Shown: positions 38,601 through 58,334 of the stretch, piece after piece | How the letters are laid out: each line of letters opens with the position of its first letter | Position numbering within the stretch: position 1 is the stretch's first letter | Origin: Candidatus Omnitrophota bacterium | GTDB taxonomy: Bacteria; Omnitrophota; Gorgyraeia; Tantalellales; Tantalellaceae | NCBI GenBank assembly: GCA_028715965.1 | Contig: JAQUQS010000002.1 | Location: forward strand, 13,368-77,367 | DNA: 64,000 nucleotides | Direction: 5' to 3' | Program-made: the position numbers and the translations under genes | The notes under the pieces: generated by a model | What the model was told of the DNA's origin: nothing | The model's database searches: none | The model's input: only the letters and a program-made list of their open reading frames with translations

Positions 38601-38607
38601 GGGCTTC

Positions 38608-39504
38608 CTATTCCTCTTCCGGCCTGGTCTTCCATCTTTTGTGCATCCAGACCCATTGTTCGGGATATTCCCTGACATATCTTTCCAAAAGCGATGTCCA
38701 CTCCTCCGTATAACGCCTTATGTTCCCGTCCACATCGTCACCTTTTACCGGATATATCGGTTCTTCTATGACCACCCTGTGGGTATTGTCTTTTTTCCTT
38801 ATTACGAATACCGGCACGATCCCGGTGCCGACAGCCATCGCTATCTTGACCGGGGCCACCGGGGTATACGCTTTCCTGCCGAAATAATCCACAAAGACGC
38901 CGTTAACACTGTCCACGTCCTGGTCCGGAACTATCCCGACCACCTCTCCCCTGTGAAGCGCCCCCAGCATCTTCTTTGGCGATTCGTCGCGATATATCAC
39001 CTTCGCGTTGTACCGGGCCCTCATCTTCTCAAGGAACTTGTTATACTTGTAGAAGTACACCTTTCTGGCCACAAGTGAACCGTTATACCCGATATGCGCG
39101 AGGTATAACCCCGCGAGCTCCCAGTTCCCGAAATGAAAAGTTATTATCAGGGCGCCACGCCCCCCGGCCAGGACGCTGTCCAGATGTTCCCTGCCGGAGA
39201 CCTCCGTGACCATGCTGTCGATCACCGACACCCGGGAGAACAACAACTTGACCCATTCCACGCCGTTCATAGCCACGTTCCGGAAAACATTTTCCGCGAT
39301 CTTACGGTTCCTGTCGCCGTTCCCCGGGAACGCGGCGTCCAGGTTGGCCACAGTGGTCTTCGCGTATCCCGGCAGCAACCTAAAGACCAGGCGCCCCAGC
39401 GCGGCCGCCAATGCCATGCCCGCCCTTAGCGGCAACAACGCCAGCAGGAAGAACAATGTCTTGGCAAGGTAATATATATAATACCGTCTATATTTTATCT
39501 TCAT
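38608..39504 (-). CDS. lipid A biosynthesis late acyltransferase (LpxL/HtrB/MsbB family)
   Basis: N-terminal TM segment, HFGNWE catalytic motif, and a C-terminal QWVWMHKRWK motif. Confidence 0.8.
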   Translation of the reverse strand: MKIKYRRYYIYYLAKTLFFLLALLPLRAGMALAAALGRLVFRLLPGYAKTTVANLDAAFPGNGDRNRKIAENVFRNVAMNGVEWVKLLFSRVSVIDSMVTEVSGREHLDSVLAGGRGALIITFHFGNWELAGLYLAHIGYNGSLVARKVYFYKYNKFLEKMRARYNAKVIYRDESPKKMLGALHRGEVVGIVPDQDVDSVNGVFVDYFGRKAYTPVAPVKIAMAVGTGIVPVFVIRKKDNTHRVVIEEPIYPVKGDDVDGNIRRYTEEWTSLLERYVREYPEQWVWMHKRWKTRPEEE

Positions 39505-39946: not shown

Positions 39947-40639
39947 TCACTTTATCCCTACGTATTTATGCGCTTGTCCCAATATAAGGACCGGTGTCCC
40001 GGTCTCTTTTTTGATATACTCCTTGAAAAAGAACATCATCTCGTCGTCCGGACCCGGTGTCCCGGCGTCCGATGGGGTCACGGGCTGCAACACCACTTCG
40101 TACCCGGACGGCACCGACCTCAGAACCTCGGTCATTTTCTTTATATCATCCATGGTGGTCGTGTCAGTTATTACCGCCTTGACTATGACCTCTTTCGCCA
40201 AAGAGACACCAAGGAACTCCTTATGCGCTTTCCACGGCGACGACCCGCTGCCCGTGGATGAAGGAAGCTTCATATCCATCGATACTATGTCGATGTGGTC
40301 TATCACTGACTTCAGCTCTTCGGGCCTCATACCATTCGTTTCCAGATACACCTTGTGCTGCCTGTGTTTGCGGAACGCCGGCAGGAACTCCGAAAGAAAA
40401 GACGCGTACATGAGCGGCTCGCCACCCGTCAGGGACAGCTCGTTGTAATCATCGTCGAAATCAAGCACTTTGCATAGCAGCGTATCCCGGGTGAATGTCT
40501 TATAGCTCTCCTGCCGTGTATCACAGAACTTGCATCCGAGGTCACATCCGAAGAACCGGATGAAAAGCTGGCGGCTCCCCGTATACGGACCCTCTCCCTG
40601 ATAGGAAAGGAATATTTCGGATATCTTGGCTTCTTTCAC
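39947..40639 (-). CDS. queE: 7-carboxy-7-deazaguanine synthase (radical SAM)
   Basis: Radical-SAM Cys cluster CDLGCKFCDT near the N-terminus. Confidence 0.85.
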   Translation of the reverse strand: MKEAKISEIFLSYQGEGPYTGSRQLFIRFFGCDLGCKFCDTRQESYKTFTRDTLLCKVLDFDDDYNELSLTGGEPLMYASFLSEFLPAFRKHRQHKVYLETNGMRPEELKSVIDHIDIVSMDMKLPSSTGSGSSPWKAHKEFLGVSLAKEVIVKAVITDTTTMDDIKKMTEVLRSVPSGYEVVLQPVTPSDAGTPGPDDEMMFFFKEYIKKETGTPVLILGQAHKYVGIK

Positions 40640-40659
40640 AGCATAGCTCCTTTTTCAGG

Positions 40660-41346
40660 TCAAGTCCCGCTTACGGGGTCCTTGACCCCCATGTCCCGGA
40701 ACGCTTTCTCCCTGAACACACATGACTCGCACCTGCCGCAGGGTCGTTCCCCTCCGGCATAACATGACCATGTAAGTTCGAACGGCACCCCCAACCTGAT
40801 GCCTTCTTCCACGATCTCTTTTTTGGTCATATTTATAAGTGGCGCGACGATATTCACCGAACCACGCTCGACCCCGGCCTTAGTGCCTTTTTTCACCATC
40901 TCCCCGAAAGCGTCCAGAAATTCGCTCCTGCAATCAGGATAATTGGAAAAATCCATCTGGTGCGCGCCTATAAAAACAGCTTCAGCCCCTGCGGCTTCGG
41001 CGAACGATACACCGAAACTCAGGAATATCATGTTCCTCGCCGGCACATATGTCGCCGGTATCCTGCCGTCCGAACTAGCGCCGTCATCAGGCACGGCCAC
41101 GGCTTCGTCCAGGAGGGCACTGCCTTTCCACGGCATATCTATCTTGAGCACATGGTATTCTACCCCGGCTCTTTTCGCGAGTTCGCGCGCGAACGCGATC
41201 TCCCTGCGCGATTTCTGCCCGTAATCGAATATGAGCGCCTTACAATCATACTTCCGCATGGCTGAATACAACGCGACCGCGGAATCCATGCCGCCGGAAA
41301 TAAGCACTATAGCCCCGGCGCCCGGTGAGGAGCCCATGCCTAACAC
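40660..41346 (-). CDS. queC: 7-cyano-7-deazaguanine synthase
   Basis: PP-loop LISGGMDSAV and a C-terminal Zn-binding Cys cluster (CGRCESC). Confidence 0.9.
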   Translation of the reverse strand: MLGMGSSPGAGAIVLISGGMDSAVALYSAMRKYDCKALIFDYGQKSRREIAFARELAKRAGVEYHVLKIDMPWKGSALLDEAVAVPDDGASSDGRIPATYVPARNMIFLSFGVSFAEAAGAEAVFIGAHQMDFSNYPDCRSEFLDAFGEMVKKGTKAGVERGSVNIVAPLINMTKKEIVEEGIRLGVPFELTWSCYAGGERPCGRCESCVFREKAFRDMGVKDPVSGT

Positions 41347-41741: not shown

Positions 41742-42281
41742 TCATTCGAAATACCTGGACGTCACTTCACGCCATTTTCCCTGCGCCTTGAGCAGGAACT
41801 CACAAAGCTCCCTTACCGCGCCGTGCCCGCCTTTTTTCGTCGTCACGATATCGCAGTATTTTTTCACGTCATCCATGGCGTTGTCAGGACAGACCGAAAG
41901 CCCTATCCTCCTGAGCACGGGGATATCTATCAGGTCATCCCCCATGAAACATATCTCTTCGTCGGACACGCCAAGATCGTCGCGGATCGGCCCGAGAGCG
42001 TTTATCTTGTAATGGATGTCCTTGTAGACCTTGTCCACTTTCAGCTGTTTCGCCCTTGCCAGGACAGCCGGGGACCCTTTAGCCGTAAGAAGCACACATT
42101 TAATGCCCGCCTTCTTTACCAGGAATATACCGAGTCCGTCGTTAACGTCGAAGTTCTTCAGCTCGACGCCGAAACTCCCGAAGATTATCCTGCCGTCGGT
42201 CATCACGCCATCGACGTCTAGGACCAGCAGCCTGATCTTCCCGGCCTTCTCTATAAGTTCGGGTGAATATTCAAATGCCAT
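41742..42281 (-). CDS. kdsC: 3-deoxy-D-manno-octulosonate 8-phosphate phosphatase (HAD)
   Basis: HAD motif I (LLVLDVDGVMTDG) and a KdsC-like body; start set at MAFEYSPELIEKAGKIRLL. Confidence 0.85.
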   Translation of the reverse strand: MAFEYSPELIEKAGKIRLLVLDVDGVMTDGRIIFGSFGVELKNFDVNDGLGIFLVKKAGIKCVLLTAKGSPAVLARAKQLKVDKVYKDIHYKINALGPIRDDLGVSDEEICFMGDDLIDIPVLRRIGLSVCPDNAMDDVKKYCDIVTTKKGGHGAVRELCEFLLKAQGKWREVTSRYFE

Positions 42282-42300
42282 ACGATCGTTCCTTTCAGGT

Positions 42301-43260
42301 TCAAACAAGACCGGCTTTGAGCACATCCTGCACATCAAGGACACCGACAGGACGGCCCTTGCCGTCTACGACCGGGATCTCATCGATCTTCCTGTCACGG
42401 AGTATCTCAAAAGCTTCCGCGGCGAGGTGTTCCGGGCCTATGGTTATCGGAGAAGCCGTCATGACCTCCCCTACCGTCCTTGTAAGAAGTTCCTTGCCTT
42501 CCTCAAAATGCCGCCGGAGATCACCATCGGTGAATATACCGATCAATTTGCCTTTTCCATCCACTATGCTCGCGGACCCCGCCCGGAGCTTTGTGATCTT
42601 GAGAAGGACCTCTTTTACCGGCACGTTCTTCCGGACTATGGGCGTATCTTTTTTAGGTCGCATTATGTCCCCCACACGGAGAAGCAGCCTCTTGCCCAAA
42701 GCCCCGCCTGGGTGGAAAAGAGCGAAATCCGCCGGACGGAATTTCTTTTTTTCAAGGAGCGCCACCGCCAGCGCGTCGCCCAGGGCCAACATGACCGTAG
42801 TGGATGTCGTAGGCGCCAGTCCCATAGGACAGGCCTCCTTATCCACCCGGCTGTCAAGCACATGGTCACTTTCCCTGGCCAGGGTCGACTTCCTGTTTCC
42901 GGTCACGGCCACAAGTTTAGCGCCGATCTTCCTGATTATCGGGATGAGCTTTACCACCTCTTCCGTTTCCCCACTGTTGGAAAAAGCGATTATCACGTCC
43001 TCTCGCGTGACCCTCCCGAGATCCCCGTGGAGCGCCTCGGCCGGATGTAGATACAACGACGGGGTACCGGTAGACGACATGGTAGCCGATATCTTCTGCG
43101 CTATGAACCCGGGCTTGCCCATACCGGTTATTATCACGCGTCCCTTCGTGCTGACAAGAAGTTTGATCACCTTTCCGAAACTTCCGTCTATCCTTCCGAC
43201 GAGAGCGGCGATCGCCTTACTCTCCATGTCCAGGACCTTTTTCGCGGTTGAAATGCTCAT
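42301..43260 (-). CDS. kdsD: arabinose-5-phosphate isomerase (SIS + tandem CBS)
   Basis: SIS domain (GRVIITGMGK) followed by two CBS domains. Confidence 0.9.
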   Translation of the reverse strand: MSISTAKKVLDMESKAIAALVGRIDGSFGKVIKLLVSTKGRVIITGMGKPGFIAQKISATMSSTGTPSLYLHPAEALHGDLGRVTREDVIIAFSNSGETEEVVKLIPIIRKIGAKLVAVTGNRKSTLARESDHVLDSRVDKEACPMGLAPTTSTTVMLALGDALAVALLEKKKFRPADFALFHPGGALGKRLLLRVGDIMRPKKDTPIVRKNVPVKEVLLKITKLRAGSASIVDGKGKLIGIFTDGDLRRHFEEGKELLTRTVGEVMTASPITIGPEHLAAEAFEILRDRKIDEIPVVDGKGRPVGVLDVQDVLKAGLV

Positions 43261-44093
43261 ATACCTTTTACCGCCCTTTCGATCTTTTTCATTTCCTTTA
43301 AATATCCGTCCAACGCCCCGATGTTAAGCATATTGGGACCGTCACTGAGCGCCTTTGCCGGAGACTCATGCACTTCGACGAACAAAGCGTCACACCCTAC
43401 GGCTACAGCGGCTCTTGACAAAGGGAACACGTAACTGGAGTCCCCGCCGCTTGATGTGCCTTTGCCTCCGGGCATCTGGACCGAATGTGTCGCGTCATAC
43501 GCCACGGGATAACCCGTCCGGCGCATTATGACCAGCGACCTGAAATCATTCACAAGCATGTTATACCCGAACGAAGTCCCCCTCTCGGTCAGGATAAGGT
43601 CCTTGTTCCCGGTGGATATCACTTTTGCCACTATATTGGATACTTCGGCCGGCGACATGAATTGGCCTTTTTTCACATTCACGGGTCTTCCCGTAGCCGC
43701 CGCTTTTACCAGGATATCCGTCTGTCGGCACAAGAATGCCGGTATCTGCAACACGTCCAGCACTTCCGCCGCGGCTACCGCCTCATCAGCGCTGTGCACA
43801 TCGCTAAGTACCGGGACACCCGTTTCCTTTTTTACTTTCTCGAGCATGCGCAGGCCTTTTTCTATCCCCGGGCCTCGATAGGACGACACGGAGCTCCTGT
43901 TGGCCTTGTCATAACTTGCCTTAAAGATGAAAGGGATGCCATTCTTGTCGGCTATGCGTTTTATCTTTTCCGCGTGCCTCATTACGCTGGAACCGGACTC
44001 GATAACACATGGACCGGCTATCAGGACGATAGGGTTCCCGCCACCTATTTTTATTTTACCGACCTTAACGGTCCTCGATGTTCTCCCGGCCAT
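43257..44093 (-). CDS. kdsA: 2-dehydro-3-deoxyphosphooctonate aldolase (KDO8P synthase)
   Basis: LIAGPCVIES and KASYDKANRSS motifs; start set at MAGRT. Confidence 0.9.
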   Translation of the reverse strand: MAGRTSRTVKVGKIKIGGGNPIVLIAGPCVIESGSSVMRHAEKIKRIADKNGIPFIFKASYDKANRSSVSSYRGPGIEKGLRMLEKVKKETGVPVLSDVHSADEAVAAAEVLDVLQIPAFLCRQTDILVKAAATGRPVNVKKGQFMSPAEVSNIVAKVISTGNKDLILTERGTSFGYNMLVNDFRSLVIMRRTGYPVAYDATHSVQMPGGKGTSSGGDSSYVFPLSRAAVAVGCDALFVEVHESPAKALSDGPNMLNIGALDGYLKEMKKIERAVKGI

Positions 44094-44094
44094 T

Positions 44095-44898
44095 TTAATA
44101 CCCCTCTTGTGTGCCCGTATCTTCCGGTGTTCCATATGTCCCGGCGGCCACCAGTTCCCTTACTTTTAAAAGATCTTCTTCCGTATCCACGCCTATCGTA
44201 TCATACCTTGTCTCGACTGTCTTTATCTTATATCCGTGTTCGAGCACCCTGAGCTGCTCAAGTTTTTCATCCTGTTCAAGCATGGATTTAGGCAGATTCG
44301 TGAACGCGAGAAGGAATTCCCTGGTATAGGAATACATGCCTATATGCTTGAAGTACATCCCGTTCACGGTTTCCGGCGCGCGCTCCTCTTCCGGCCGGAC
44401 GATGTCCCTGCGCACATAAGGTATCGGGCTCCTGGAAAAATACAGGGCGTAACCTTTCCTGTCGACCACGCACTTGACCACATTCGGGTCTTTCACCTCT
44501 TCTTCCCGCGTTATCCTTTTTATAAGCGTGGCCATCTGCACATTGGGTTCGTATTCGAACACCCTGGCAAGCTCATCTATCATGCTGGGGTGGACCAGCG
44601 GTTCATCCGCCTGGATGTTTATATACACGTCCGCGTCAACACTTCCAGCTATCTCCGCGATACGGTCCGTACCCGAAGCGTGGTCCGGCGACGTGTACAT
44701 GGCCCGTCCCCCGAAAGATTCCACCGCTTTGAACACTTTTTCCCTGTCCACGGCAACTATCACTTCATCGACCAGCTCCGCGTTCTTAGCCCTTTCCCAC
44801 ACATGTTGCAACATAGGTTTGCCGTCAATATCAGCGAGCACCTTCCCCTTTAGACGCGAAGAATGCCACCTGGCCGGGACAACCGCTACTACCTTCAT
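44095..44898 (-). CDS. kdsB: 3-deoxy-manno-octulosonate cytidylyltransferase (CMP-Kdo synthetase)
   Basis: VVAVVPARWHSSRLKGK N-terminus. Confidence 0.9.
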   Translation of the reverse strand: MKVVAVVPARWHSSRLKGKVLADIDGKPMLQHVWERAKNAELVDEVIVAVDREKVFKAVESFGGRAMYTSPDHASGTDRIAEIAGSVDADVYINIQADEPLVHPSMIDELARVFEYEPNVQMATLIKRITREEEVKDPNVVKCVVDRKGYALYFSRSPIPYVRRDIVRPEEERAPETVNGMYFKHIGMYSYTREFLLAFTNLPKSMLEQDEKLEQLRVLEHGYKIKTVETRYDTIGVDTEEDLLKVRELVAAGTYGTPEDTGTQEGY

Positions 44899-46520: not shown

Positions 46521-47552
46521 TCAAACGCCCAGAACCTTGCTGACGGAGCTCATCACCTCGTCCACGGTAACAGCTTTTATACACGCGAAATCGCGTTCGC
46601 ACTCATGCGCCAGACATCGCTCGCAGCCAACATCTTTATGCAGGACCGTATCCCCGGCCCCGACCGGCCCCCATCTTCGCGGGGATAATCCCGCGTCTTT
46701 GCGCCCGAATACGGCGATGACCGGAGTGCCTACGGCGACCGCCACGTGGACCGGACCGGAATCGTTCGAGATAAGCAGGCGGCACCTGGACAGGAATTCC
46801 GCGAATTCACCCAGCAGCAATCCGCCGGTAAGGTCCACCGGTTCCTCTTTCATCAAGGACACCACTGAACTCGACATCCCCTCGGACTCATTCCCTCCCA
46901 CGAATATCACACGCGCCCCGAATTCTTTACTTATCCTGTCCGCCACTTCGGCGAACCTGCCGGTAGGCCATCTTTTAGACCTGCAACTCGCCCCGACATG
47001 CATAGCAACCAGCTCTCCCGTCAATCCGTTATCTTTGATAACGGCATCGACCATTTTTTTGTCAGCGTCGGATGTGCTCATGTAAGGCATTCTGTCATAA
47101 AGCGTTACATCAACGCCAGCCAGCGCCAAAAGATCGAAATTATAGTCTATCTCGTGTTTGGCGCCTTCCTGCTTGATATGTGGCGCCCTCTTTGTCAAAA
47201 GGAACGGAAGTCTTTTGTCATATCCAACACGTTCCGGTATCCCTGCCAGGAACGCCACGATATGAGAACGGTTGGTCGGGTGCAGTATTATGGCCGTATC
47301 AAATCTTTTCTTTCTCAGTTCCCACGCGAAAAGCACCGTGCCCACGAACCCTTTCTGGGCTCCTTCCTTGTCATATATTATCACCTCATTGATATCGGGG
47401 TTATCCTCCACTATGTCCCGGTTCCCGGGCTTTACCATGAACGCGATATACGCGTCGGGGTAAAGTTTCCTTAAATGCCGCGCCACAGGAGTGGAAAGCA
47501 CCACATCCCCCAGTCTGTCCGTGCGTGTGACAAGTATACGTTCCATGGTCAT
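46521..47552 (-). CDS. ADP-heptose:LPS heptosyltransferase (GT9)
   Basis: GT9 N-terminus (ILVTRTDRLGDVVLSTPVARHL) and C-terminal GT-B motifs. Confidence 0.8.
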   Translation of the reverse strand: MTMERILVTRTDRLGDVVLSTPVARHLRKLYPDAYIAFMVKPGNRDIVEDNPDINEVIIYDKEGAQKGFVGTVLFAWELRKKRFDTAIILHPTNRSHIVAFLAGIPERVGYDKRLPFLLTKRAPHIKQEGAKHEIDYNFDLLALAGVDVTLYDRMPYMSTSDADKKMVDAVIKDNGLTGELVAMHVGASCRSKRWPTGRFAEVADRISKEFGARVIFVGGNESEGMSSSVVSLMKEEPVDLTGGLLLGEFAEFLSRCRLLISNDSGPVHVAVAVGTPVIAVFGRKDAGLSPRRWGPVGAGDTVLHKDVGCERCLAHECERDFACIKAVTVDEVMSSVSKVLGV

Positions 47553-48295: not shown

Positions 48296-48820
48296 TTATC
48301 GAGCCGGGTTCATCCCTCTACCAGACGTTATCTCGCTATATATCTTACGGTAAATATCAAGATCCCCTGATGAAAAACACACGTACACTATTTCATCAAG
48401 ATCGTCCTTGTGTTTCAGGCCCTCCTCAAGGGCTATCCTCGCCGCGGCCTCGACCGGGTATCTGTAGACACCGGTGCTTATCGCGGGAAAAGCGATGGAC
48501 CTTAGAGAATGTTCGGCGGCCAGCCGGAAACTGGCGGCATAACAGCTCCTGAGAAGCTCAGCCTCGCCGCTCTTTCCTCCATGCCATACCGGACCGGGCG
48601 TATGTATTATTTTTTTAGCCTTCAGCCTGCCCGCGCCCGTTATCACGGCCTCTCCCGTACGGCATCCACCTATCCGGCGGCATTCTTCCATGACCGAAGA
48701 CCCGGCCGCGCGATGTATTGCCCCATCGACGCCGCCTCCTCCTTTAAGGCCGGTATTCGCGGCGTTAACGATAACGTCGACCTCTTCCTGTGTTATGTCA
48801 CCGTGTTTTATGGTGATCAT
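48296..48820 (-). CDS. macro-domain protein (ADP-ribose / O-acetyl-ADP-ribose binding or hydrolase)
   Basis: Macro-domain motifs VIVNAAN...GGGGVDGAIHRAAG; start ATG overlaps the upstream GT9 stop as ATGA. Confidence 0.8.
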   Translation of the reverse strand: MITIKHGDITQEEVDVIVNAANTGLKGGGGVDGAIHRAAGSSVMEECRRIGGCRTGEAVITGAGRLKAKKIIHTPGPVWHGGKSGEAELLRSCYAASFRLAAEHSLRSIAFPAISTGVYRYPVEAAARIALEEGLKHKDDLDEIVYVCFSSGDLDIYRKIYSEITSGRGMNPAR

Positions 48821-49848
48821 TCCCATTCCGTACCTTCCAATATCTTCTCGGCCGCCCTGTATACCTCCTCAACGGTCACGTCGTTTATACAGCCGTCCGG
48901 AGGACGTTTCTGGCACGACCCCTTACCGCATGGCCTGCACCCTATCCGCGGGTTAAGCACAACGCTCTTTTCCGCAAGAGGACCGTATTTTTTTTCGTCG
49001 GTAGGCCCGAAAATAGCTACCGTGGGCGTCCCGACGGCGCTCGCGATGTGGAGCGGCGCGCTGTCTCCGGTTATCACCATACATGCCCTGGCCATAAGCC
49101 CGGCGGCACAGCCTATCGTGGTACGAGAACAGACATCCAGCACCGGACGCTTGGTGGCCGCTATAACATCGTTCACGGTCTGGCGGTCCTCATCCGTTCC
49201 GGTAAGGAAAACAATACAATCTTTCTCCCCGGAAAGCATATCCGAGAGTTTCGCGTAATTGGACGCTTTCCATTTTTTCAGGTGGTTCTTGGTCCCCGGG
49301 TTGATCACTACTATCCTGTCCCGCTGCACACCCGGGCCAAGCGTTCTTTCCGCTTCCACGATAAGGCTTTCCGCCTGACGCGCGTCCTCTTCGGATACCG
49401 GGACATAGAACCCAACATCCCTTTCCGCGTCAATACCAAGCGTTCTCAGTTTTGCGAGATGTTCCGTTCTCTTATGCGCCGTCACCCCGGATGATAGCCT
49501 CTTTATCCCGCCAAGGAACGACGACAATGACCTTGTTCCGTACCTCGCGCCTGCCACATACGGCATAAGTGAGTTCTTGAGGTCGACCACAAGGTCATAT
49601 TTCTGTCTGCGGGTGAGCAGGACGTCGAGTAACCTGGAGCGTAACGTTTTCCTCCGTTTGTTTATTATCACCTTACGCACCGCGGGGTGGGCCAGGAATA
49701 TGTCCCTGCCAGGCATACCCGTCACGACATCGATAACGGCATCGGGAAATTCGTCATGCAGCTTCCGTAGCACCGGGGTGGTAAGGACTATATCGCCCAG
49801 GTTGCTCAGGCTTATCAGAAGGATGCTTTTTACGCGGGACTTGTCCAT
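48817..49848 (-). CDS. ADP-heptose:LPS heptosyltransferase (GT9)
   Basis: ILLISLSNLGDIVLTTPVLRKL GT9 N-terminus. Confidence 0.8.
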   Translation of the reverse strand: MDKSRVKSILLISLSNLGDIVLTTPVLRKLHDEFPDAVIDVVTGMPGRDIFLAHPAVRKVIINKRRKTLRSRLLDVLLTRRQKYDLVVDLKNSLMPYVAGARYGTRSLSSFLGGIKRLSSGVTAHKRTEHLAKLRTLGIDAERDVGFYVPVSEEDARQAESLIVEAERTLGPGVQRDRIVVINPGTKNHLKKWKASNYAKLSDMLSGEKDCIVFLTGTDEDRQTVNDVIAATKRPVLDVCSRTTIGCAAGLMARACMVITGDSAPLHIASAVGTPTVAIFGPTDEKKYGPLAEKSVVLNPRIGCRPCGKGSCQKRPPDGCINDVTVEEVYRAAEKILEGTEWE

Positions 49849-50888
49849 ATCCGGTCCTTGTTCTTTAATGCGTCCCTTATCGCGGAAAAAACCGTATCAA
49901 CCCCGATCGAATACATGCACACATTGTTATTCCTGCATTTTTTCACATAGCAGGGTACGGCACAATCGGGCGAGCTCCTAATGACGATATTCCGTCCTCG
50001 TCCGCGCTGCCCCGTTATTTCCGGTGACGTAGGGCCGAAAAGGCCTATCGTAGTGGCGCCCGTGGCCGACGCCAGGTGAAGCGGACCCGAATCCGCGCTT
50101 ACCACAAGTTCCGAGGAAAGAAAAAGAGCGGCAAGCTCGTTGAGCGATGTCCTTCCGGCCGTGTTATATACGCGTTCCCCCCCAGCCTCACTCACGATGG
50201 TATCCCCCAGCGTCCTGTCCCCCGGGGCCCCGGTTATGACTATGTCAAGGTCCCTGAAAGCCCATAGTATCTGGCGTGCCAGCGATATGAAATTCATCGG
50301 CGACCATCTTTTCGCGTCCCAGTTCCCACCGGGGTTCAGTACGATGAAAGGATTTCTTCCCACTCCTATCCCGGACAGGATGCGTTCCATCCTTTCCTTA
50401 TCATCGTCCCTTATGAAGTACTCATAAGTCCCGTCCGCCTTGTCAATGCCGAACAGACCTGCCAGGGAAAGAAGCTGGTCGGCCCTGTGCACCGCGCCGT
50501 TCGGGCACGCGACTTCCGAGGTGAGCGGGAGGTTCTTCCCGGCGAACCCTACGCGTTCCGGGATACCCGCCAGCATGGACATGATCACCTTGGTCCTGGA
50601 CGCTTTGAGGAATACCGCGGTACCATACTTCTCTTTTTTTACCATATCCACGAAATCGAGCTTTTCGCCCACTGAGAAGATACGGTTATCATCCGAAAGC
50701 ACATGCACGTAATTGATCCATGGCACATTGGCCAACAGGTCGGCGTATCTGGGGACCACGACGCAGCTGATATACGCGGTCGGGAATCTTAAACGCAAAG
50801 CCCTCAAGAGGGGGAAGGAAAAAAGTATGTCCCCCAGCCAGTTAAGTTCAAAAATAATAATGCGCTTAGGGCTCTCGACGTCCGTCAC
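49830..50888 (-). CDS. ADP-heptose:LPS heptosyltransferase (GT9)
   Basis: IIIFELNWLGDILFSFPLLRAL GT9 N-terminus. Confidence 0.8.
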   Translation of the reverse strand: MTDVESPKRIIIFELNWLGDILFSFPLLRALRLRFPTAYISCVVVPRYADLLANVPWINYVHVLSDDNRIFSVGEKLDFVDMVKKEKYGTAVFLKASRTKVIMSMLAGIPERVGFAGKNLPLTSEVACPNGAVHRADQLLSLAGLFGIDKADGTYEYFIRDDDKERMERILSGIGVGRNPFIVLNPGGNWDAKRWSPMNFISLARQILWAFRDLDIVITGAPGDRTLGDTIVSEAGGERVYNTAGRTSLNELAALFLSSELVVSADSGPLHLASATGATTIGLFGPTSPEITGQRGRGRNIVIRSSPDCAVPCYVKKCRNNNVCMYSIGVDTVFSAIRDALKNKDRIWTSPA

Positions 50889-51970
50889 AGGACCTCCTGG
50901 TATACCTCAATGGTCTTCTCCACGCTTGTATGGATATCATAGTTGTCGAACGCTTTTCTCCTGGCGGCTTTCGCCAGGTCTTTCCTCAGGATATCATCTT
51001 TTGCCAGTTCCATCAATCTTTTAGCAAGCGCGGCGACGTCTCCCGGAGGAGCCAGCAATCCGTCCCGACCGTCCGTTATGAGCTCCGAAAGACCGCCTAC
51101 ATCGCTGGCCACACAGGCCCTCTCGGCCGCCATGGCCTCCATGAGCGAAAGCCCCAGTCCTTCGTGCATTGATGGGGAGCAGAAAATATCGAACATGGGC
51201 AGATACTCTTCCGGCGGCTGTCCGCCGGGGACCATGGAGACCTTCCCGGCCAGCCCCAGTGAAGTTATCTGTTTTTCCAAAGATTTTTTTTCCGGCCCGT
51301 CTCCCACCATCACCATGCGCGCTCGAGGTTCCTCCGCGGCCAGGGCCGAGAACGCTTCCACGAGATACTTATATCCTTTCACCGGGGAAAGCCGCCCTAT
51401 CGTGCCCACGACGAACGTGTCCTGGGGTAGCCCCATCTCCCGCAGCATGGTCGCGTCCTTACGCCCGGATATACCCGAGAACCTGGCAAGTTCGATACCG
51501 TTATAGACCATGGATATCTTGTTCTCAGGCACCCCGAAATCCCTGATAAGATGCCCTTTTACGCTGTTACTTATAGCAATTACCCTGTTCCCCCACGCGG
51601 GCAGAAGCATCCTTGAGATACGTTTGTGTTTGAAGAAACCGTGGCACGTGGATACGAACGGGATGCCCGTCCTGCGGCTCACCACCTCGGATATTATCTG
51701 GGTCACCCGTGTTTGGGCGTGTATGACCTGCGTATCCTCTTCCCTGGCCAGTTCTCCTATGGCACCGACCGCTTTCCATACCTTCAGGGAAAATTCCTGT
51801 TTGGTCAATATATCCGCCGTATGATGTTTTACGCCATACTCCGCGAGCTTACCCTCGAGTTCGCCTCCACCCGAGACCACTGTTACTTTATGCCCGTACC
51901 TATGGAGATATCGGGACAGGTCCGTGATATAGACGCCCACCCCGCCCATGTTCATATGCGTTGTTATTAT
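50885..51970 (-). CDS. glycosyltransferase family 4 (GT-B, retaining)
   Basis: GT4 N-terminus (MNVMIITTHMNMGGVGVY) and C-terminal E.....E motif region (MHEGLGLSLMEAMA). Confidence 0.8.
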   Translation of the reverse strand: MITTHMNMGGVGVYITDLSRYLHRYGHKVTVVSGGGELEGKLAEYGVKHHTADILTKQEFSLKVWKAVGAIGELAREEDTQVIHAQTRVTQIISEVVSRRTGIPFVSTCHGFFKHKRISRMLLPAWGNRVIAISNSVKGHLIRDFGVPENKISMVYNGIELARFSGISGRKDATMLREMGLPQDTFVVGTIGRLSPVKGYKYLVEAFSALAAEEPRARMVMVGDGPEKKSLEKQITSLGLAGKVSMVPGGQPPEEYLPMFDIFCSPSMHEGLGLSLMEAMAAERACVASDVGGLSELITDGRDGLLAPPGDVAALAKRLMELAKDDILRKDLAKAARRKAFDNYDIHTSVEKTIEVYQEVL

Positions 51971-51978
51971 CATCACGT

Positions 51979-54063
51979 TCATAAAAGCTCCATCACGGCA
52001 TTGTATATATCCGCCGGTTTTATGGACGTCATACATCTCCGGTCACGTCGGCAGATCGGGTCGTAACACGGTGAGCATTTCACCTTACGATGCAGGACCT
52101 TTTTCTTTCCGGAAGGAGGAAGGTGCCTTGCCGGGTCCGTAGGCCCGAAATACGACACAAAAGGGGTATTCACCGCCGAAGCTACATGCATCGGCGCGCT
52201 GTCCCCCGTAACAACGATATCACACCTCTTTATAAGCGCGATAAACTGGCCGATATTGGTCTTTCCTACAGCGTCTATCGGTTTTGCCAAAGTGGTCTTC
52301 ATGAATTCGGACGCTTCCAGTTTATCTTCTTCCGCGCCGATCAGGACCGTCCTTACTCCCCGTTCTTTCGCGAGCATATCAGCTACCTTAACAAGTGTGG
52401 GGACGCCCACGTTCTTGGACCTCCATTTCCTTGAAGCGGAAACGCTCATGGCAACTATCTTCTGGTCTTTTTGCAGCCAATTGCCGCCAAAGAACTTCTC
52501 CGCCCATTCCTCGTTCTCCGGCGTAGGCCATAGTTCCAGGTTATCGTCCACATGCGCTATGCCCAGAAGGGCCAGCACACATCCCTGCTGCCGGACCGGC
52601 GGCATGGGCCGTGCAGGCATCTTGGCCTTCCTGTTGAGAAGCACGCTCAGCTTACCGTTATTGAACCCGTATCTCTCCGGTATGGCCGCCAAATACGCCA
52701 GCATATGGCTCTTCCGGCTGTTCTGCAGGTCGATCGACATGTCGAGATCTTCCGACCTTATCGCCCCGGCCAGACGAAGGAACCCGACACCCTTGTCCCT
52801 TGTTCTGAAATCACATGTGATCACATCATCGATATAAGGGCATCCACTGAGCACTTCACGGAACCTTATGTCGGCCAGCACTTTTATTTCCGCGCCCGGG
52901 AAAGCTTTCCTGACAGCCCTCATTGAAGGTACCGCGAGTATAATATCCCCAAGCGAGCTTATCTTCATGATGAGTATGTTCTTCATGGAAAGCGCTTTGG
53001 AATAAACTTCAAGGGTACTTTCCATTACCTTGCCAAGGGAAAAATGATCTTCCACGTTCTTCCGGGCGGCCCTGGAGACCCTTTCTACCAGCTCACGGTC
53101 CTGGGCATACCTCATGACCTTTTCGGCGATATCGGACGGGTTCATGGGTTCACACAAAAGACCGGTCACTCCGTCCTCAACGTTCTCGACCACTCCACCT
53201 ACTCTCGTGGCGACTACCGGCACCCCCCTGGCCTGGGCCTCTATTATCGACCTGCCGAACGCCTCCTGGCTACGATTCGCGGAAACGAACACGTCCAGGT
53301 CCTTCAGGACCTCGGCCACATCATGGCTCGAGTCTATGAACCTGATCACGTTCTCAAGTCTCAGCCGCCTCACGGTAAGGTCTACCCTCTTCAGGTAATC
53401 CTCTTTCGCCGAGGCCCTGTCCCCCATTATCACGATCTCAAGATTGTTCATCCGCCTGGAAACATATGACATCGCCTTCAAAAAGTCCTGGTGTCCCTTA
53501 AGGGGCGTGTACCGGCATATCATACCGACCCGGAATTTCTTTCGGTCCTTATCGAACGGCGACACGTACCCGAAACGCTCAAGGTCTACCCCCCTCGGTA
53601 TTATGGATAGTTTCCTCGTCGGCACGCCGAATTTGTCTTTCATATATCTGGCCATAGTATCATTTGCCACGATAACGATCTTGCCCCATCCCATAACACG
53701 GCTTATAAGGTGCGGTTTGTACTGCCCGTGAGCGGTGGTCAAGAACACCTTGCCGGTGGATTTTGCCGCGAAATACCCCATTAGGGCCGGGATACGGCTC
53801 CTGGCGTGGACTATATCGATACTTTCCTTGCGTATTATGCGCCTTAGGCATATATACGACCATATCATCGTGATGGGATTTTTCTTTCCCACAGGCACGG
53901 TGTAGTGCCTGGCACCGATGGCCGCCAGATTGCCCTCGTATATCCCGCCGCCGGAGACCACGACGGCCTTGTGCCCTTTGGCCACAAGGGCACGCGCGAC
54001 CTCCACTGTGCCTTTCTCCACCCCGCCTACGTTCAATCTCGGGACAAGTTGTAATATGTTCAT
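51979..54063 (-). CDS. bifunctional glycosyltransferase: N-terminal GT4 fused in-frame to C-terminal GT9 heptosyltransferase
   Basis: A 694-aa ORF. The GT4 part runs to ...TLEVYSKALS and is directly followed by MKNILIMKISSLGDIILAVP, a GT9 N-terminus, with no intervening stop. I checked the junction codons on the sequence. Confidence 0.75.
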   Translation of the reverse strand: MNILQLVPRLNVGGVEKGTVEVARALVAKGHKAVVVSGGGIYEGNLAAIGARHYTVPVGKKNPITMIWSYICLRRIIRKESIDIVHARSRIPALMGYFAAKSTGKVFLTTAHGQYKPHLISRVMGWGKIVIVANDTMARYMKDKFGVPTRKLSIIPRGVDLERFGYVSPFDKDRKKFRVGMICRYTPLKGHQDFLKAMSYVSRRMNNLEIVIMGDRASAKEDYLKRVDLTVRRLRLENVIRFIDSSHDVAEVLKDLDVFVSANRSQEAFGRSIIEAQARGVPVVATRVGGVVENVEDGVTGLLCEPMNPSDIAEKVMRYAQDRELVERVSRAARKNVEDHFSLGKVMESTLEVYSKALSMKNILIMKISSLGDIILAVPSMRAVRKAFPGAEIKVLADIRFREVLSGCPYIDDVITCDFRTRDKGVGFLRLAGAIRSEDLDMSIDLQNSRKSHMLAYLAAIPERYGFNNGKLSVLLNRKAKMPARPMPPVRQQGCVLALLGIAHVDDNLELWPTPENEEWAEKFFGGNWLQKDQKIVAMSVSASRKWRSKNVGVPTLVKVADMLAKERGVRTVLIGAEEDKLEASEFMKTTLAKPIDAVGKTNIGQFIALIKRCDIVVTGDSAPMHVASAVNTPFVSYFGPTDPARHLPPSGKKKVLHRKVKCSPCYDPICRRDRRCMTSIKPADIYNAVMELL

Positions 54064-54076
54064 GTTCCGCCTTCTA

Positions 54077-55966
54077 TCAAAAAACCTTTTCTATCTTGGA
54101 GTATAGTTCATCCATATCTTCCGGAAGATGCCGCGCGGCCATCCCGGTGGTCATGGCCGTGCGCATATCCTCCGCAAGGACCTCCCTGCGAAGCTTCTTA
54201 AGGTATCCCCGTCCGGCCAGTTCGTCCACAAAAACATCGTATTTGGTCTTTCCCCGGCGTTTCTTGTCGGGCATTATCACGAAAACGGGCCTGCCGGATG
54301 AAACCGCTTCGGAAACCATTGATATACTGTCCCCCGTCACGAACACTATATCGCTCGAGGCCAGTATCTTGTCCACCGTTTTCGCGTCATTGTCGCTTTT
54401 TCCCGAAACGAATTTAAGGCATCTCTCATCCTCCCGGAGCATGTCCTGGAACGTCTTGTCGGCGTCCGGAGGCGTTCTTCTGGACGTGGTCAACATGAAC
54501 CGGGTCCCGGTATCCCCACACGAACCCGACAGCGCTTCGGATATATCCCTGGCCGTCGCCTCGCTGAACGTGTAGAACCTGTTCTCCCCTCCTATAAGCA
54601 CGCCGACACATTTTATCCCATCAAGACCGTTCCTCTCCTTACCCCTAAGGTCCTCGAGTTCCGATATATCGACCAGCGTGGGCGGCATATCGGTGACCAC
54701 GACGTTAGCCCCTATGGGCGACAGCCCCTTCCTTACCACGTCGTGCCGGGGCAGCACGATAAGGTCGAACCCCCAGCGGTTCATCCGTCCCGGGTCCATT
54801 ATGGTCAGGTTCTTGGCGCCATTCTCCGACGAGACCAGCCTGTTGACCCCGTAAAGCGCCGAGCCGCAACTTATCACGACATCAGCGTATACGGAGATGA
54901 TAGCGTCATAACTTCCCGGTTCAAGCGCCCATTTCAGCAGGAAAGGACGCCCCTGAAAGAGGTCACCGTATAGTGGCGAGAACATGTTCAGGATAGTACG
55001 CCTCACGCGGCTCTTGAACTTCACGGACACCGTCTTTACTTCCAAAGCTCCTTCCGGCATGTTCCTTTTTTCTTTCCAGTAACGACCTGCCGTACCGGCC
55101 ACGGCCATGGACTGTTTGAAATGCCCCTTCTTCCCATCGTCCAGCACGAGCACTTTACGTACAGGGGTCAGCTTCCACTTCTTATGCATCCACATCCATT
55201 GGTCCGGGGACTTTCTTACATGTTTCTCCAGGAGCTCGTTATATTTTTCCACATACGGCGTTATATCCTCGTTCTTGCCGATGACCATAGGTTCCTCCAG
55301 GACGGCCTGATGGTAAGGGCCGTCCACGCGGTGTATAAAGGCCGGTAATATCCAGGCACCTGTTTTTTGCGCGAACCTGTATGGTCCCACAGCCGTAGAG
55401 GCCGGTCGCCCGAAGAGGTTGACGAGCTTACCATTGGGGCCGGCGTTCTGATCGGCCAGTATACCCACGCTCTTACCTTCCTTGAGTACCCGGAAAAGGT
55501 TCTTAATATCAGCACCCTTCCGTATCACAATGTTACCCTTAGACTCCCGCAGGCGGTTAAGAAGTTCGTTAAGCCTCTGCATTTTCTGGTCTCTGGCCAA
55601 GAGGTACAGGGGATACCCCTGGAAAACACTGGCCACGGTGCTCATTTCCCAATTACCGAAATGCGCCGACACCATTATCATCCCCCGCGGGTTGGAAGCG
55701 GCTTTTCCCAGGTTCTCGCTGTTGATTATCTCCAGATGCTTTTCCAGGTATTCCCGGTCAACCTTGGTAAGCGCCAATATCTCCACGAACGTCTGGACCA
55801 TGTTTCGATACGTGCCTATGGTCAATCTCCTGATGTCGCGGGGACTTTTTTCGGACGCGAACGCCGCCCGGATATTCCTGTACGTTACCTTACGGCGTTT
55901 CCCGCTCAGAAGATAAATGAGATAACCGAACGCCCGGCCGGCCCAGAGGTTCAAACCCATCGGCAT
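54077..55966 (-). CDS. fusion of LpxL-family lipid A late acyltransferase (N-terminal) with an ELM1/DUF1022-like predicted GT-B domain (C-terminal)
   Basis: HFGNWE acyltransferase motif and the ...PDQWMWMHKKWK end, then VLVLDDGKKGHFKQSMAVAG, which resembles ELM1-family N-termini. The domain assignment is from memory of family signatures; start trimmed to MPMGLN to avoid overlap with lpxK. Confidence 0.65.
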   Translation of the reverse strand: MPMGLNLWAGRAFGYLIYLLSGKRRKVTYRNIRAAFASEKSPRDIRRLTIGTYRNMVQTFVEILALTKVDREYLEKHLEIINSENLGKAASNPRGMIMVSAHFGNWEMSTVASVFQGYPLYLLARDQKMQRLNELLNRLRESKGNIVIRKGADIKNLFRVLKEGKSVGILADQNAGPNGKLVNLFGRPASTAVGPYRFAQKTGAWILPAFIHRVDGPYHQAVLEEPMVIGKNEDITPYVEKYNELLEKHVRKSPDQWMWMHKKWKLTPVRKVLVLDDGKKGHFKQSMAVAGTAGRYWKEKRNMPEGALEVKTVSVKFKSRVRRTILNMFSPLYGDLFQGRPFLLKWALEPGSYDAIISVYADVVISCGSALYGVNRLVSSENGAKNLTIMDPGRMNRWGFDLIVLPRHDVVRKGLSPIGANVVVTDMPPTLVDISELEDLRGKERNGLDGIKCVGVLIGGENRFYTFSEATARDISEALSGSCGDTGTRFMLTTSRRTPPDADKTFQDMLREDERCLKFVSGKSDNDAKTVDKILASSDIVFVTGDSISMVSEAVSSGRPVFVIMPDKKRRGKTKYDVFVDELAGRGYLKKLRREVLAEDMRTAMTTGMAARHLPEDMDELYSKIEKVF

Positions 55967-55982
55967 AACATGAAAAACGGCG

Positions 55983-57038
55983 TTAAGACCCCTGACTATG
56001 TAAGACGCTATCAAGTCCAGCAAGGACCGACTCCTTTCCCCTGACAATATCCATATCAACATTGAGGGCAAGTATCTTATCACGCAATACGCCCAATTCC
56101 AGCTCGGCCAGTTTAACCATGTCTTTTTTTGTGACCACGATATTATCCGCTCCGGAAGCCGCGAAGCGGCCCCCTATCTCCTCGACATCTGAGGCGGTAT
56201 ACGCGTGATGGTCATCATATACCATATGGCCGGTCAATTCCATCCCGCATCGCCCGGCGATAAGCTCGAACGAACCCGGTGACGCTATACCGCTCACGAG
56301 CAGGACCTTCTTGTTCTTCGCGTTCCCCAGAGAGGTGTTCTTTCCCGAGACATCGGACAGAGAAACGGGCCGGCGGATGGATTCCGCGACCAGCTTCCCT
56401 GAAATGACGTTACCCAGCCGGGATAATACGGTGTTCCTTTGCGCCTCTCCCATTTCAGACGTTCCCGTAACGACCACGATATCCGCCCTCGAAAGCGCGC
56501 TTATACGTTCCCTGAAAGGCCCGCGTGGCAAAAGGCCCGTATTCCCCGCCATAGAATCCGCGTCCACAAGCACTATATCAAGGTCCCTCTCGAGCGCGCG
56601 GTGCTGGAACCCGTCATCCATGACCAGGACATCGCACCCCTTGGACACGGCATAAGCTGCGGACTTGACCCTGTCCCTGCCTACCACTACAGGTACTTCC
56701 GGCAACTCCCCGGCAAGCATCTTATCCTCGTCCCGGCCATACCCCCTTGTCAGGATGGCGGGACGGCATCCCCTGCCCGCGAGTTCGCGCACGATATACA
56801 GAGAGAACGGCGTTTTGCCGGTACCTCCCGCGGTTATGTTGCCGACACTTATGACCGGCACATCCACTTTGGTCGTTTTCCTGAATCCCCTCCTGTAAGC
56901 CAGGTCCACGAACCATATGCCCGCGCCATAAAGAAGTGACAGCGCCCACAACACCCACTTCAGAGGTAGCAGCGCGGGACGCGCCCCTTCGTCCTTCATG
57001 ACCCCCGTGATCCAAAGTCTCAGATCGCCCATATCCAT
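55983..57038 (-). CDS. lpxK: tetraacyldisaccharide 4'-kinase
   Basis: P-loop VGNITAGGTGKTP. Confidence 0.9.
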   Translation of the reverse strand: MDMGDLRLWITGVMKDEGARPALLPLKWVLWALSLLYGAGIWFVDLAYRRGFRKTTKVDVPVISVGNITAGGTGKTPFSLYIVRELAGRGCRPAILTRGYGRDEDKMLAGELPEVPVVVGRDRVKSAAYAVSKGCDVLVMDDGFQHRALERDLDIVLVDADSMAGNTGLLPRGPFRERISALSRADIVVVTGTSEMGEAQRNTVLSRLGNVISGKLVAESIRRPVSLSDVSGKNTSLGNAKNKKVLLVSGIASPGSFELIAGRCGMELTGHMVYDDHHAYTASDVEEIGGRFAASGADNIVVTKKDMVKLAELELGVLRDKILALNVDMDIVRGKESVLAGLDSVLHSQGS

Positions 57039-57053
57039 TCCCCTCGGTGGATA

Positions 57054-58334
57054 TCACCCCAGAAATCTATCAAGCAGGCTTACTGTCCGATCGACCGCGC
57101 CTGAATTCTCCCGTATGACATCTACGGCCTTCCTTGATATATTCCTCCTCATGCCATCGTCCTTTATAAGCCTTTCAAGCACCTGTTCAAGCTCATCAGC
57201 GTCCGCGACCTGGATAGCGCCTTCCCTGGAAAGGAACATCCGGACAGCTTCCTTGAAATTATACATGTTCGGCCCGAAAACGACCGGTTTCCCGTAACTT
57301 GCCGGTTCTATAATGTTCTGTCCGCCTTTTTTTACAAGACTCCCGCCCACGAACACTATAGTGGCAAGGGCATACATATCCTTAAGGTGCCCTATGCTGT
57401 CCACGACCATTACGTCGTACGTCCCGGTCTTCCCGCCGCCTGGCGCCCCTTTCCCGCGCAGCCCTGAATACGCCATATGCCTCAGCCCGGCTTCCTCGAT
57501 ATACACTTTTACCGCTTCGACCCTTTCCACATGTCTCGGCGCGATTATGAGCTTGAGCCCGGGTATCCTGCCGGAAAGTCTCTTATATACATCGATCAAC
57601 TGGGATTCCTCGTTGAAATGGGTGCTCCCGGCCACTATTATAAGGTCATCCTGCCGCATGCCTATATCCTCGGGTCTTACCGGAAGCGGCAGGCCCTCAG
57701 ATATACCCTGGTCGAACTTAACATTGCCTGTGACCGTAACCCTTTCCGTGGCGGCGCCCATACGAACGATACGCGAAGCATCATCCTTCGTCTGCACGGA
57801 AAAAACATCTATACATCCCAGCATTCCAGAAATGAAAGGCTTTACCTTAAGATAGTTCCTGAAAGACCTGTCGGATATCCTTCCGTTCACTACGGCTATG
57901 GGCACACCTTTCCTTTTAAGCGCCGTCATCAGGTTTGGCCACAGTTCCGTTTCGATCACGACATAGAGCCTGGGGTTTATCTTCGATATCACCCTCGAGA
58001 CTATAAAACTGATGTCCAGGGGATAATAGAACACCCTGTCGACCACACCCTTGCCCGCCTTTTCCATCATGTCTTGTCCCGTGGTCGTCGTGGTCGAGAC
58101 CACGATGGGCACACCGGGTGACCTTTTCCTGATGCCCTTTGCTATACGCGCGGCGACATTCGCCTCACCCACGCTCACCGCGTGTATCCAGACAGGCGCG
58201 TCGAGCCCGTCCATGGACCTTCCAAACGCCCCGAACCGTTCCAGGAAACGTCCGTGCGCCTTGCCTTTCAAGACCAGGCAAGGCAGGTAGAACAGTCCGA
58301 ACAGCATAAAAAATATATCATATAAGATACGCAT
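57054..58334 (-). CDS. waaA: 3-deoxy-D-manno-octulosonic acid transferase (Kdo transferase)
   Basis: WIHAVSVGE N-terminal motif; GT30-like over the full length. Confidence 0.9.
   Translation of the reverse strand: MRILYDIFFMLFGLFYLPCLVLKGKAHGRFLERFGAFGRSMDGLDAPVWIHAVSVGEANVAARIAKGIRKRSPGVPIVVSTTTTTGQDMMEKAGKGVVDRVFYYPLDISFIVSRVISKINPRLYVVIETELWPNLMTALKRKGVPIAVVNGRISDRSFRNYLKVKPFISGMLGCIDVFSVQTKDDASRIVRMGAATERVTVTGNVKFDQGISEGLPLPVRPEDIGMRQDDLIIVAGSTHFNEESQLIDVYKRLSGRIPGLKLIIAPRHVERVEAVKVYIEEAGLRHMAYSGLRGKGAPGGGKTGTYDVMVVDSIGHLKDMYALATIVFVGGSLVKKGGQNIIEPASYGKPVVFGPNMYNFKEAVRMFLSREGAIQVADADELEQVLERLIKDDGMRRNISRKAVDVIRENSGAVDRTVSLLDRFLG

Follow-up and report, generated by a model that had tools for sequence, protein, structure and literature searches.

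Why would a lipid A acyltransferase and a domain of the ELM1 family be joined in one polypeptide, and what would the second half do there? The question is raised by a minus-strand gene in a 64,000-nucleotide (nt) stretch of DNA from a Candidatus Omnitrophota bacterium (assembly GCA_028715965.1, contig JAQUQS010000002.1, positions 13,368 to 77,367; the whole stretch is referred to below as the window). We favor, at a probability of roughly 0.6, the view that the encoded fusion protein is a bifunctional lipopolysaccharide (LPS)–assembly enzyme that acylates and glycosylates lipid A carrying 3-deoxy-D-manno-oct-2-ulosonic acid (Kdo), most likely with Kdo as the donor sugar. An original prediction, made from the window sequence alone, held that the ELM1-like domain adds a sugar or other group at lipid A or the inner core in concert with acylation. 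This idea is supported by the predicted GT-B fold of the domain, by the conservation of the fusion, and by the biochemistry of KdoT, an ELM1-like protein of Acinetobacter baumannii.

Two intact domains in one reading frame

The gene lies within a minus-strand open reading frame (ORF) that reaches, stop to stop, from the stop codon at 54077–54079 up to 56083. Residue numbers below refer to the protein of 648 amino acids (aa), except those of the Pfam matches (25–304 and 320–638), which are counted from the GTG at 56083. The elements of the gene are as follows:

54077–56023, minus strand: complete coding sequence of the fusion protein, 648 aa, TTG start at 56023, stop codon at 54077–54079
56031–56036, minus strand: Shine-Dalgarno–like AAGGAG, 7 nt before the TTG and still inside lpxK near its 3′ end
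55983–56023, minus strand: 41-nt overlap of the lpxK 3′ end with the 5′ end of the fusion gene
55169–56023, minus strand: LpxL/HtrB-family late acyltransferase domain, aa 1–285 (PF03279 match)
55646–55663, minus strand: HFGNWE, the HX4E acyltransferase motif, H121 to E126 (from the translation)
54080–55168, minus strand: ELM1/GtrOC1/KdoT-family domain, a predicted GT-B glycosyltransferase, aa 286–648 (PF06258 match)
55121–55138, minus strand: DGKKGH, D296 to H301, in the first β strand/loop of the predicted GT-B N-lobe (from the translation)
54473–54484, minus strand: SRRT, S514-R515-R516-T517, the KdoT-family signature (from the translation)

Translation starts at the TTG at 56023 and not, as had been predicted, at the ATG at 55966, since AAGGAG can be read 7 nt before the TTG, P0001, an NCBI entry with 100% identity to the encoded protein ([quoted passage not shown]), is 648 aa long, and the corresponding alignment column is the start in 38 of 55 orthologues. 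The ATG is 57 nt too far downstream, and a start there loses conserved N-terminal sequence. Because the gene begins at this TTG, it overlaps lpxK by 41 nt; stop-to-stop ORFs overlap comparably at this boundary in related loci. The overlap suggests that the fusion gene is translationally coupled to lpxK. That the two genes overlap had been foreseen correctly, but the ATG chosen at the time is reached only after lpxK has ended (TAA, 55983–55985).

In the N-terminal half, PF03279 (Lip_A_acyltrans) matches residues 25–304 with 164.8 bits (E = 3.3e-48; profile positions 14–294 of 295). In the C-terminal half, PF06258 (Mito_fiss_Elm1) matches residues 320–638 with 154.2 bits (E = 5.7e-45; profile positions 2–283 of 304). 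Both scores far exceed the gathering cutoffs (22.3 and 27 bits, respectively), and the matches are therefore not due to chance. The same two assignments, LpxL/HtrB and ELM1/DUF1022-like, had been made from motifs, all of which are present: HFGNWE and QWMWMHKKWK in the acyltransferase and VLVLDDGKKGH in the ELM1-like domain. H121, W125, and E126 of the acyltransferase motif are invariant in 55 of 55 orthologues. The domain aligns over residues 21–284 with the structure of A. baumannii LpxM (5KN7; E = 5e-14), HFGNWE being matched to HFGTWE, and all of its 17 NCBIfam matches are lipid A or related acyltransferases, with lipid A lauroyl acyltransferases as the best ones.

The linker between the domains comprises ~8 residues (WKLTPVRKVLVL), and the junction sequence is conserved (WMHKRWKxTPxKKVMVLDDGKKGH). 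The model of the full-length protein has a predicted local distance difference test (pLDDT) score of 91 and a predicted template modeling score (pTM) of 0.86. This model and the 8-residue linker fit a fixed arrangement of the two domains, and, taken together, linker length, conserved junction, and pTM fit a module coupled both physically and translationally.

The C-terminal domain is predicted to be a GT-B glycosyltransferase

The AlphaFold2 model of the isolated C-terminal domain (pLDDT 92, pTM 0.90) was compared with Protein Data Bank (PDB) structures using Foldseek. The top matches were all GT-B enzymes or GT-B–fold epimerases at a probability of 1.0 [E = 3e-10 to 1e-7, template modeling (TM) scores of ~0.45 to 0.56, identities of 10 to 16%]. 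They include plant uridine diphosphate (UDP) glycosyltransferases, UDP–N-acetylglucosamine (GlcNAc) 2-epimerases, MshA, MGD1, and glycogen synthase. Model and structural matches thus agree on the GT-B fold that had been predicted, and no unrelated fold was obtained. PDB sequence searches with the C-terminal domain, alone and as a profile, returned nothing meaningful; therefore, the PF06258 family appears to be without a solved structure.

Among the GT-B matches, at ranks 9 and 45, are two chains that are accessory subunits of respiratory complex I from Tetrahymena (8b6f_A0 and 8gym_T1; E of ~1e-8, TM scores of 0.37 to 0.39), both absent from the PDB-sequence profile search. They may be of interest, given that the eukaryotic members of the ELM1 family are mitochondrial.

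Conserved residues were defined in sets of 55 orthologues and 98 fusion proteins, at a mean column identity of ~29%. D296, G300, and H301 are invariant in both sets, as are H427-D428, G478-G479, and S566xSMxSE572; E572 is the counterpart, in an alignment with WaaA, of the invariant GT-B glutamate E343. The SRRT motif is invariant in 55 of 55 orthologues and was found in 371 of the 382 family proteins fetched, alphaproteobacterial-type stand-alone members among them. A stand-alone ELM1-family protein from Magnetospirillum is 29% identical to the domain over 247 residues (E = 2e-22). We also considered the domain as a diverged member of GT30, the family of WaaA; hhalign against an alignment of Omnitrophota WaaA gave a probability of 11% and aligned nothing beyond the generic glutamate motif of the C-lobe, and the idea was rejected.

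The original prediction had treated the function of the ELM1-like family as unknown, which no longer holds, as KdoT was characterized in 2024–2025. KdoT (A1S_2903), which is apparently the same protein as GtrOC1, was studied genetically (PMC10936431, mBio 2024), and in 2025, the purified protein was reported to be a CMP-Kdo:Kdo2-lipid IVA KdoIII transferase in vitro (CMP, cytidine monophosphate; PMC12856342). It is unable to act on lipid IVA and prefers Kdo2-lipid IVA over hexa-acylated Kdo2-lipid A; its activity requires R180 of SRRT, a motif invariant in all homologues; and a distant Rickettsia homologue complements the A. baumannii ΔkdoT mutant (PMC12856342). The presence of SRRT in the window protein supports the predicted catalytic competence of the C-terminal domain but not the identity of its donor.

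The histidine of the DGKxGH motif (H301) is invariant in Omnitrophota fusions, and alphaproteobacterial-type stand-alone proteins carry N or M at this place (AGN/AGM). The equivalent histidine of KdoT, H13, is not conserved outside Acinetobacter (PMC12856342).

The fusion is conserved across Omnitrophota

A search of 5.8 billion proteins revealed at least 120 protein clusters, from NCBI, JGI, ENA, and Logan assemblies, in which both Pfam domains are present in one protein 40 to 56% identical to that of the window. These fusion proteins are nearly all 590 to 661 aa long, and the named cluster members always come from Candidatus Omnitrophota/Omnitrophica. With the C-terminal domain as query, HMMER was run exhaustively over 1.84 billion cluster representatives and yielded 2807 relatives at E ≤ 1e-3. 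Among the 148 closest 50%-identity cluster representatives, the LpxL domain precedes ELM1 in 116, and many others are fragments; many representatives that contain the C-terminal domain only are likewise truncated. One close relative that looked stand-alone (P0164) was discarded: its contig is only 1.7 kb long, the protein is a fragment, and the proteins nearest to it are fusions.

Relatives are encoded at no fewer than 585 loci in the species-representative genomes of GTDB, and the best 80 of these loci were examined. All 80 come from Omnitrophota-type metagenome-assembled genomes, some of which are labeled “uncultured Planctomycetia” by one submitter. LpxL and ELM1 form a single ORF in 70 of them, five carry an LpxK-ELM1 fusion, four are cut by a contig end, and one contains an in-frame stop. 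The order waaA, lpxK, fusion gene, and GT4-GT9 glycosyltransferase gene is kept in 64 of the 64 loci with upstream DNA, and in 63 related loci the gene after the fusion is a GT4-GT9 homologue. The proximity of ELM1 to lipid A or Kdo genes, noted in the original prediction, is thus the rule in these Omnitrophota loci and is also seen in the Acinetobacter outer-core locus, but none of the four stand-alone ELM1 homologues checked is adjacent to LPS genes.

It is hardly conceivable that the fusion is an assembly or frameshift artifact joining two separate genes. The single in-frame stop between the domains, in 1 of the 80 related loci, would speak for it; against it stand the independent clusters, drawn from four sources of assemblies, with both domains in a single protein of 636 to 661 aa, the fusion in 116 of 148 distant representatives and in 70 of 80 species genomes, and the conserved junction. 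These counts rule the artifact out, a frameshift having been named beforehand as an outcome that would overturn the original prediction.

Three of the related loci deserve separate mention. In the one with the in-frame stop (L009, 5149–7110), the stop lies at 6061–6063 between the LpxL and ELM1 parts, and it could reflect a gene split in two, a pseudogene, or an error in sequencing. In another (L076, 2790–5156), waaA and lpxK lie within one stop-to-stop ORF, which may encode a WaaA-LpxK fusion. In L059, waaA is separated from the lpxK-ELM1 gene by two genes, one for a CBS-domain protein and one transporter-like.

The LpxK-ELM1 fusions (PF02606 plus PF06258, ~710 to 740 aa; proteins P0184, P0253, P0166, P0315, and P0342; species loci L024, L037, L041, L058, and L059) belong to one Omnitrophota subclade. 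GT9 is a third partner of the ELM1 domain, in proteins P0206 (736 aa) and P0307. In a rough neighbor-joining tree, built without bootstrap, the five LpxK-ELM1 domains group as a single clade inside the LpxL-ELM1 domains, and the GT9-ELM1 domain is nested within them too. This nesting suggests that LpxL-ELM1 is the ancestral form in the phylum. LpxK-ELM1 would then have arisen by deletion of the LpxL segment, since lpxK lies directly upstream and such a deletion would yield the observed protein. Both alternative fusions point to the same pathway neighborhood for the ELM1 domain.

The gene lies in a cluster for lipid A, Kdo, and core synthesis

The LPS-related and intervening genes of the window are listed below in the direction of transcription:

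57054–58334, minus strand: waaA (Kdo transferase, GT30), first gene of the conserved block (PF04413, E = 5.2e-60; NF004388, E = 1.2e-104)
55983–57038, minus strand: lpxK (tetraacyldisaccharide 4′-kinase), directly upstream of the fusion gene, TAA at 55983–55985 (PF02606, E = 4.9e-78)
51979–54063, minus strand: two-domain GT4+GT9 glycosyltransferase gene, directly downstream of the fusion gene (PF00534/PF13439 and PF01075)
50885–52036, minus strand: GT4 gene of the downstream glycosyltransferase array
49830–50888, 48817–49848, and 46521–47552, minus strand: GT9 genes of the same array
48296–48826, minus strand: gene for a macro-domain (ADP-ribose–binding) protein, among the GT9 genes of the core cluster
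44095–44898, minus strand: kdsB (CTP_transf_3)
43257–44135, minus strand: kdsA (DAHP_synth_1)
42301–43260, minus strand: kdsD (SIS and CBS)
41742–42344, minus strand: kdsC-like gene (Hydrolase_3)
39947–41346, minus strand: queC and a radical-SAM (QueE-like) gene, between the Kdo-synthesis and the lpxL/lpt genes
38608–39504, minus strand: stand-alone LpxL-family paralogue (PF03279, E = 1.3e-53) with a hydrophobic N-terminal anchor
37722–38678, minus strand: LptC-related (PF06835) and LptA/LptD_N (PF03968) domains in one ORF, which overlaps the stand-alone LpxL ORF by ~70 nt
36984–37706, minus strand: lptB, after the LptC/LptA-like ORF

The lpxK product scores 179.9 bits against TIGR00682 (cutoff, 91.95). 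The glycosyltransferase array noted in the original prediction is present, with the GT4-GT9 gene, the GT4 gene, and the three GT9 genes, and an HldE-like kinase gene lies on the minus strand between the GT9 and the kds genes. The four kds genes (kdsA to kdsD, 41742–44898) supply CMP-Kdo and belong to the same strand cluster as the fusion gene. The separate LpxL paralogue had also been pointed out; it is 32% identical to the fused acyltransferase domain, and its anchor reaches a Kyte-Doolittle maximum of 2.02 at residues 18–36. The remainder of the window consists of housekeeping genes.

The GT4 enzyme GnaT of A. baumannii reportedly acts directly after KdoT; given this, the order ELM1, then GT4, may be meaningful. 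The queC/radical-SAM pair interrupts the LPS block. Every Pfam-supported ORF checked between 4810 and 63976 of the window (~50 genes) is on the minus strand, forming a long, strictly co-directional array, nearly all large ORFs of the window share this strand, and the guanine-cytosine skew is negative all through 50 to 60 kb of the window.

Proposed function and alternatives

The domain identities, the intact motifs, the modeled fold, and the conservation of both fusion and synteny were observed here, and the activity of KdoT and its substrate preference come from the literature; the donor sugar, the acceptor position, and any kinetic coupling between the domains of the fusion protein are inferred. 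The protein would act on the cytoplasmic side of the inner membrane, its substrate being provided by the products of the two upstream genes, LpxK making lipid IVA and WaaA adding Kdo. As an LpxL-type late acyltransferase dependent on acylated acyl carrier protein, the N-terminal domain would place a secondary acyl chain onto Kdo-lipid IVA. The C-terminal domain, a GT-B enzyme predicted to be catalytically competent, would glycosylate this lipid in its Kdo region. By analogy with A. baumannii KdoT, the sugar added would most likely be another Kdo donated by CMP-Kdo, and we count the presence of kdsA to kdsD in the same strand cluster in favor of this donor. The downstream GT4 and GT9 enzymes would next extend the core. 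The fusion may keep both activities together because they share a substrate, Kdo2-lipid IVA; such sharing is expected since LpxL of Escherichia coli requires Kdo residues on lipid IVA and KdoT prefers Kdo2-lipid IVA.

Several observations weigh against this proposal. The N-terminal domain scores below all 17 NCBIfam equivalog cutoffs (at best 159.7 bits versus 248, for NF006270), and is, therefore, placed in the family without an assigned acyl position or chain. Hydropathy analysis revealed no clear transmembrane helix at the fused N terminus (Kyte-Doolittle, 19-residue maximum of 1.37); accordingly, we do not claim an N-terminal helix that would anchor the glycosyltransferase in the membrane. 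Being family-wide, SRRT is no indicator of a Kdo donor, and the likeness to KdoT is one at the level of the family and of the published residue descriptions. PF06258, which belongs to the GT-B clan CL0113, has at least five members among A. baumannii outer-core proteins (GtrOC1, 14, 19a, 19b, and 22; PMC10327509), so that donor specificity probably varies within the family. The window also encodes four GT9 heptosyltransferase-like domains, and one of them, the GT9 half of the gene at 51979–54063, passes the TIGR02195 (heptosyltransferase II) equivalog cutoff (143.1 bits versus 134.6). If the first heptose (HepI) is attached to O5 of KdoI, the KdoIII(2→5)KdoI linkage of Acinetobacter is impossible here.

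The same architecture and pathway position would be retained if the C-terminal domain transferred some other sugar, such as hexose, hexuronic acid, or a derivative of GlcNAc, with Kdo or lipid A as the acceptor. We regard this as possible, though rather less than probable. The GtrOC proteins 14, 19a, 19b, and 22, in addition to GtrOC1, imply varied specificities; the SRRT motif cannot tell donors apart; the domain is just 29% identical even to alphaproteobacterial members; and the GT9 heptosyltransferase genes may already take O5 of KdoI. Set against this, the sole family member with a demonstrated activity uses CMP-Kdo, and the complementation of ΔkdoT by a very distant Rickettsia homologue suggests an early origin and a wide distribution of this activity among family members; moreover, the fusion partners LpxL, LpxK, and GT9 all act at the Kdo-lipid IVA stage or adjacent to it. 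A more radical departure would be a self-contained glycolipid module, in which the glycosyltransferase adds a sugar and the PF03279 domain acylates that very sugar; late acylation of lipid A proper would then fall to the stand-alone LpxL (38608–39504). The precedent is PatA, which acylates mannose in phosphatidylinositol mannosides and which is included in PF03279. The N-terminal domain does match PatA structures (E of ~3e-11) and NF005919 (90.9 bits), hydropathy shows no clear transmembrane anchor in it, and a conventional, membrane-anchored LpxL paralogue is present elsewhere in the window. We nevertheless find such a module very unlikely: the domain scores higher against NF006270 and LpxM (5KN7) than against PatA, the position of the gene between lpxK and the core glycosyltransferases is invariant, and two late acyltransferases are normal for hexa-acylated lipid A.

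The C-terminal domain could also be a noncatalytic scaffold or regulatory module that recruits or positions other LPS enzymes. In plants, ELM1 serves a dynamin-related protein as its adaptor (cited in PMC10936431), and the authors of that study raised such a role for A1S_2903 ahead of the in vitro work. Purified KdoT, however, is catalytic by itself. SRRT, the GG loop, and the glutamate of SxSMxSE, residues of the donor-site type, are strictly invariant at the low mean column identity (~29%) of the proteins compared, and the geometry of the GT-B cleft is modeled with high confidence. A scaffold is accordingly very improbable.

Within the proposal of a bifunctional acyl- and glycosyltransferase, a stricter version would make the fusion an obligatorily coupled two-step machine, in which one Kdo2-lipid IVA molecule is acylated and glycosylated without release, in a fixed interdomain geometry. 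We consider this version doubtful. If it were true, Omnitrophota would build a noncanonical inner core, of the Kdo3 type or otherwise branched, by a channeled route not seen in model bacteria, and the LpxK- and GT9-ELM1 variants would represent an ELM1 module passed between successive enzymes of the lipid A–core assembly line.

Significance

Neither domain family is new and the pathway follows a conventional logic; the fusion is not a new kind of system. Its architecture is already implicit in databases, in precomputed Pfam pairs and in names that cover one half of the protein, “KDO2-lipid IV(A) lauroyltransferase” at JGI and the ELM1/GtrOC1 name at NCBI. We found no paper that discusses an LpxL-ELM1 fusion, and the KdoT paper (PMC12856342) is silent on fusions. 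The joining of ELM1 to LpxL and, in sister lineages, to LpxK or a GT9 heptosyltransferase provides independent, Rosetta-stone support for work of this family at the Kdo-lipid IVA stage. It would also extend KdoT-type function from Proteobacteria to a distant, largely uncultured phylum. Many Omnitrophota are ultra-small and host-dependent. The proposed function predicts that members of the phylum have a complete LPS whose Kdo region is modified, and the fusion protein offers a natural test case for the coupling of late acylation and inner-core glycosylation.

Comparison with known systems

With LpxL and LpxM (HtrB and MsbB; 5KN7 and the E. coli LpxL), the window protein shares PF03279, the HX4E motif, and an expected Kdo-dependent substrate. 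It differs from them in scoring below the equivalog models, in showing no clearly hydrophobic N-terminal anchor by hydropathy, and in carrying a predicted glycosyltransferase C terminus of 363 aa. Plant ELM1 shares PF06258, to which it gave the family name, but it is a eukaryotic adaptor of dynamin-related protein, without a known glycosyltransferase role or a connection to LPS.

WaaA (KdtA, GT30) resembles the C-terminal domain in its GT-B fold, in acceptors of the lipid IVA type, in the glutamate shared as E572 and E343, and, if the analogy with KdoT holds, in using CMP-Kdo as the donor. The two have no meaningful sequence relationship (hhalign, 11%), and a separate waaA gene lies two genes upstream of the fusion. 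WaaA and KdoT also differ from each other, since KdoT cannot start Kdo addition on lipid IVA.

KdoT is the known protein to which the C-terminal domain is compared above. Both belong to PF06258, both carry SRRT, the GT-B fold predicted for the domain is shared with KdoT, and KdoT, too, is encoded among LPS core genes. Judged from spacing and not from an alignment, the D-x4-H, HD, and SRRT elements of the window protein are compatible with D8, H13, H109-D110, and R179-R180 of KdoT. KdoT is a stand-alone protein, whereas the window domain is preceded by an LpxL-type partner in a fusion of 648 aa, of which it makes up the C-terminal half, and its N-lobe has ~30 residues more. Acinetobacter is without heptose and carries KdoIII on O5 of KdoI, whereas the window organism has several GT9 heptosyltransferase-like genes; the acceptor position may therefore be different. 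The acceptor of KdoT, Kdo2-lipid IVA, is the expected substrate of the LpxL-type domain to which its relative is fused here.

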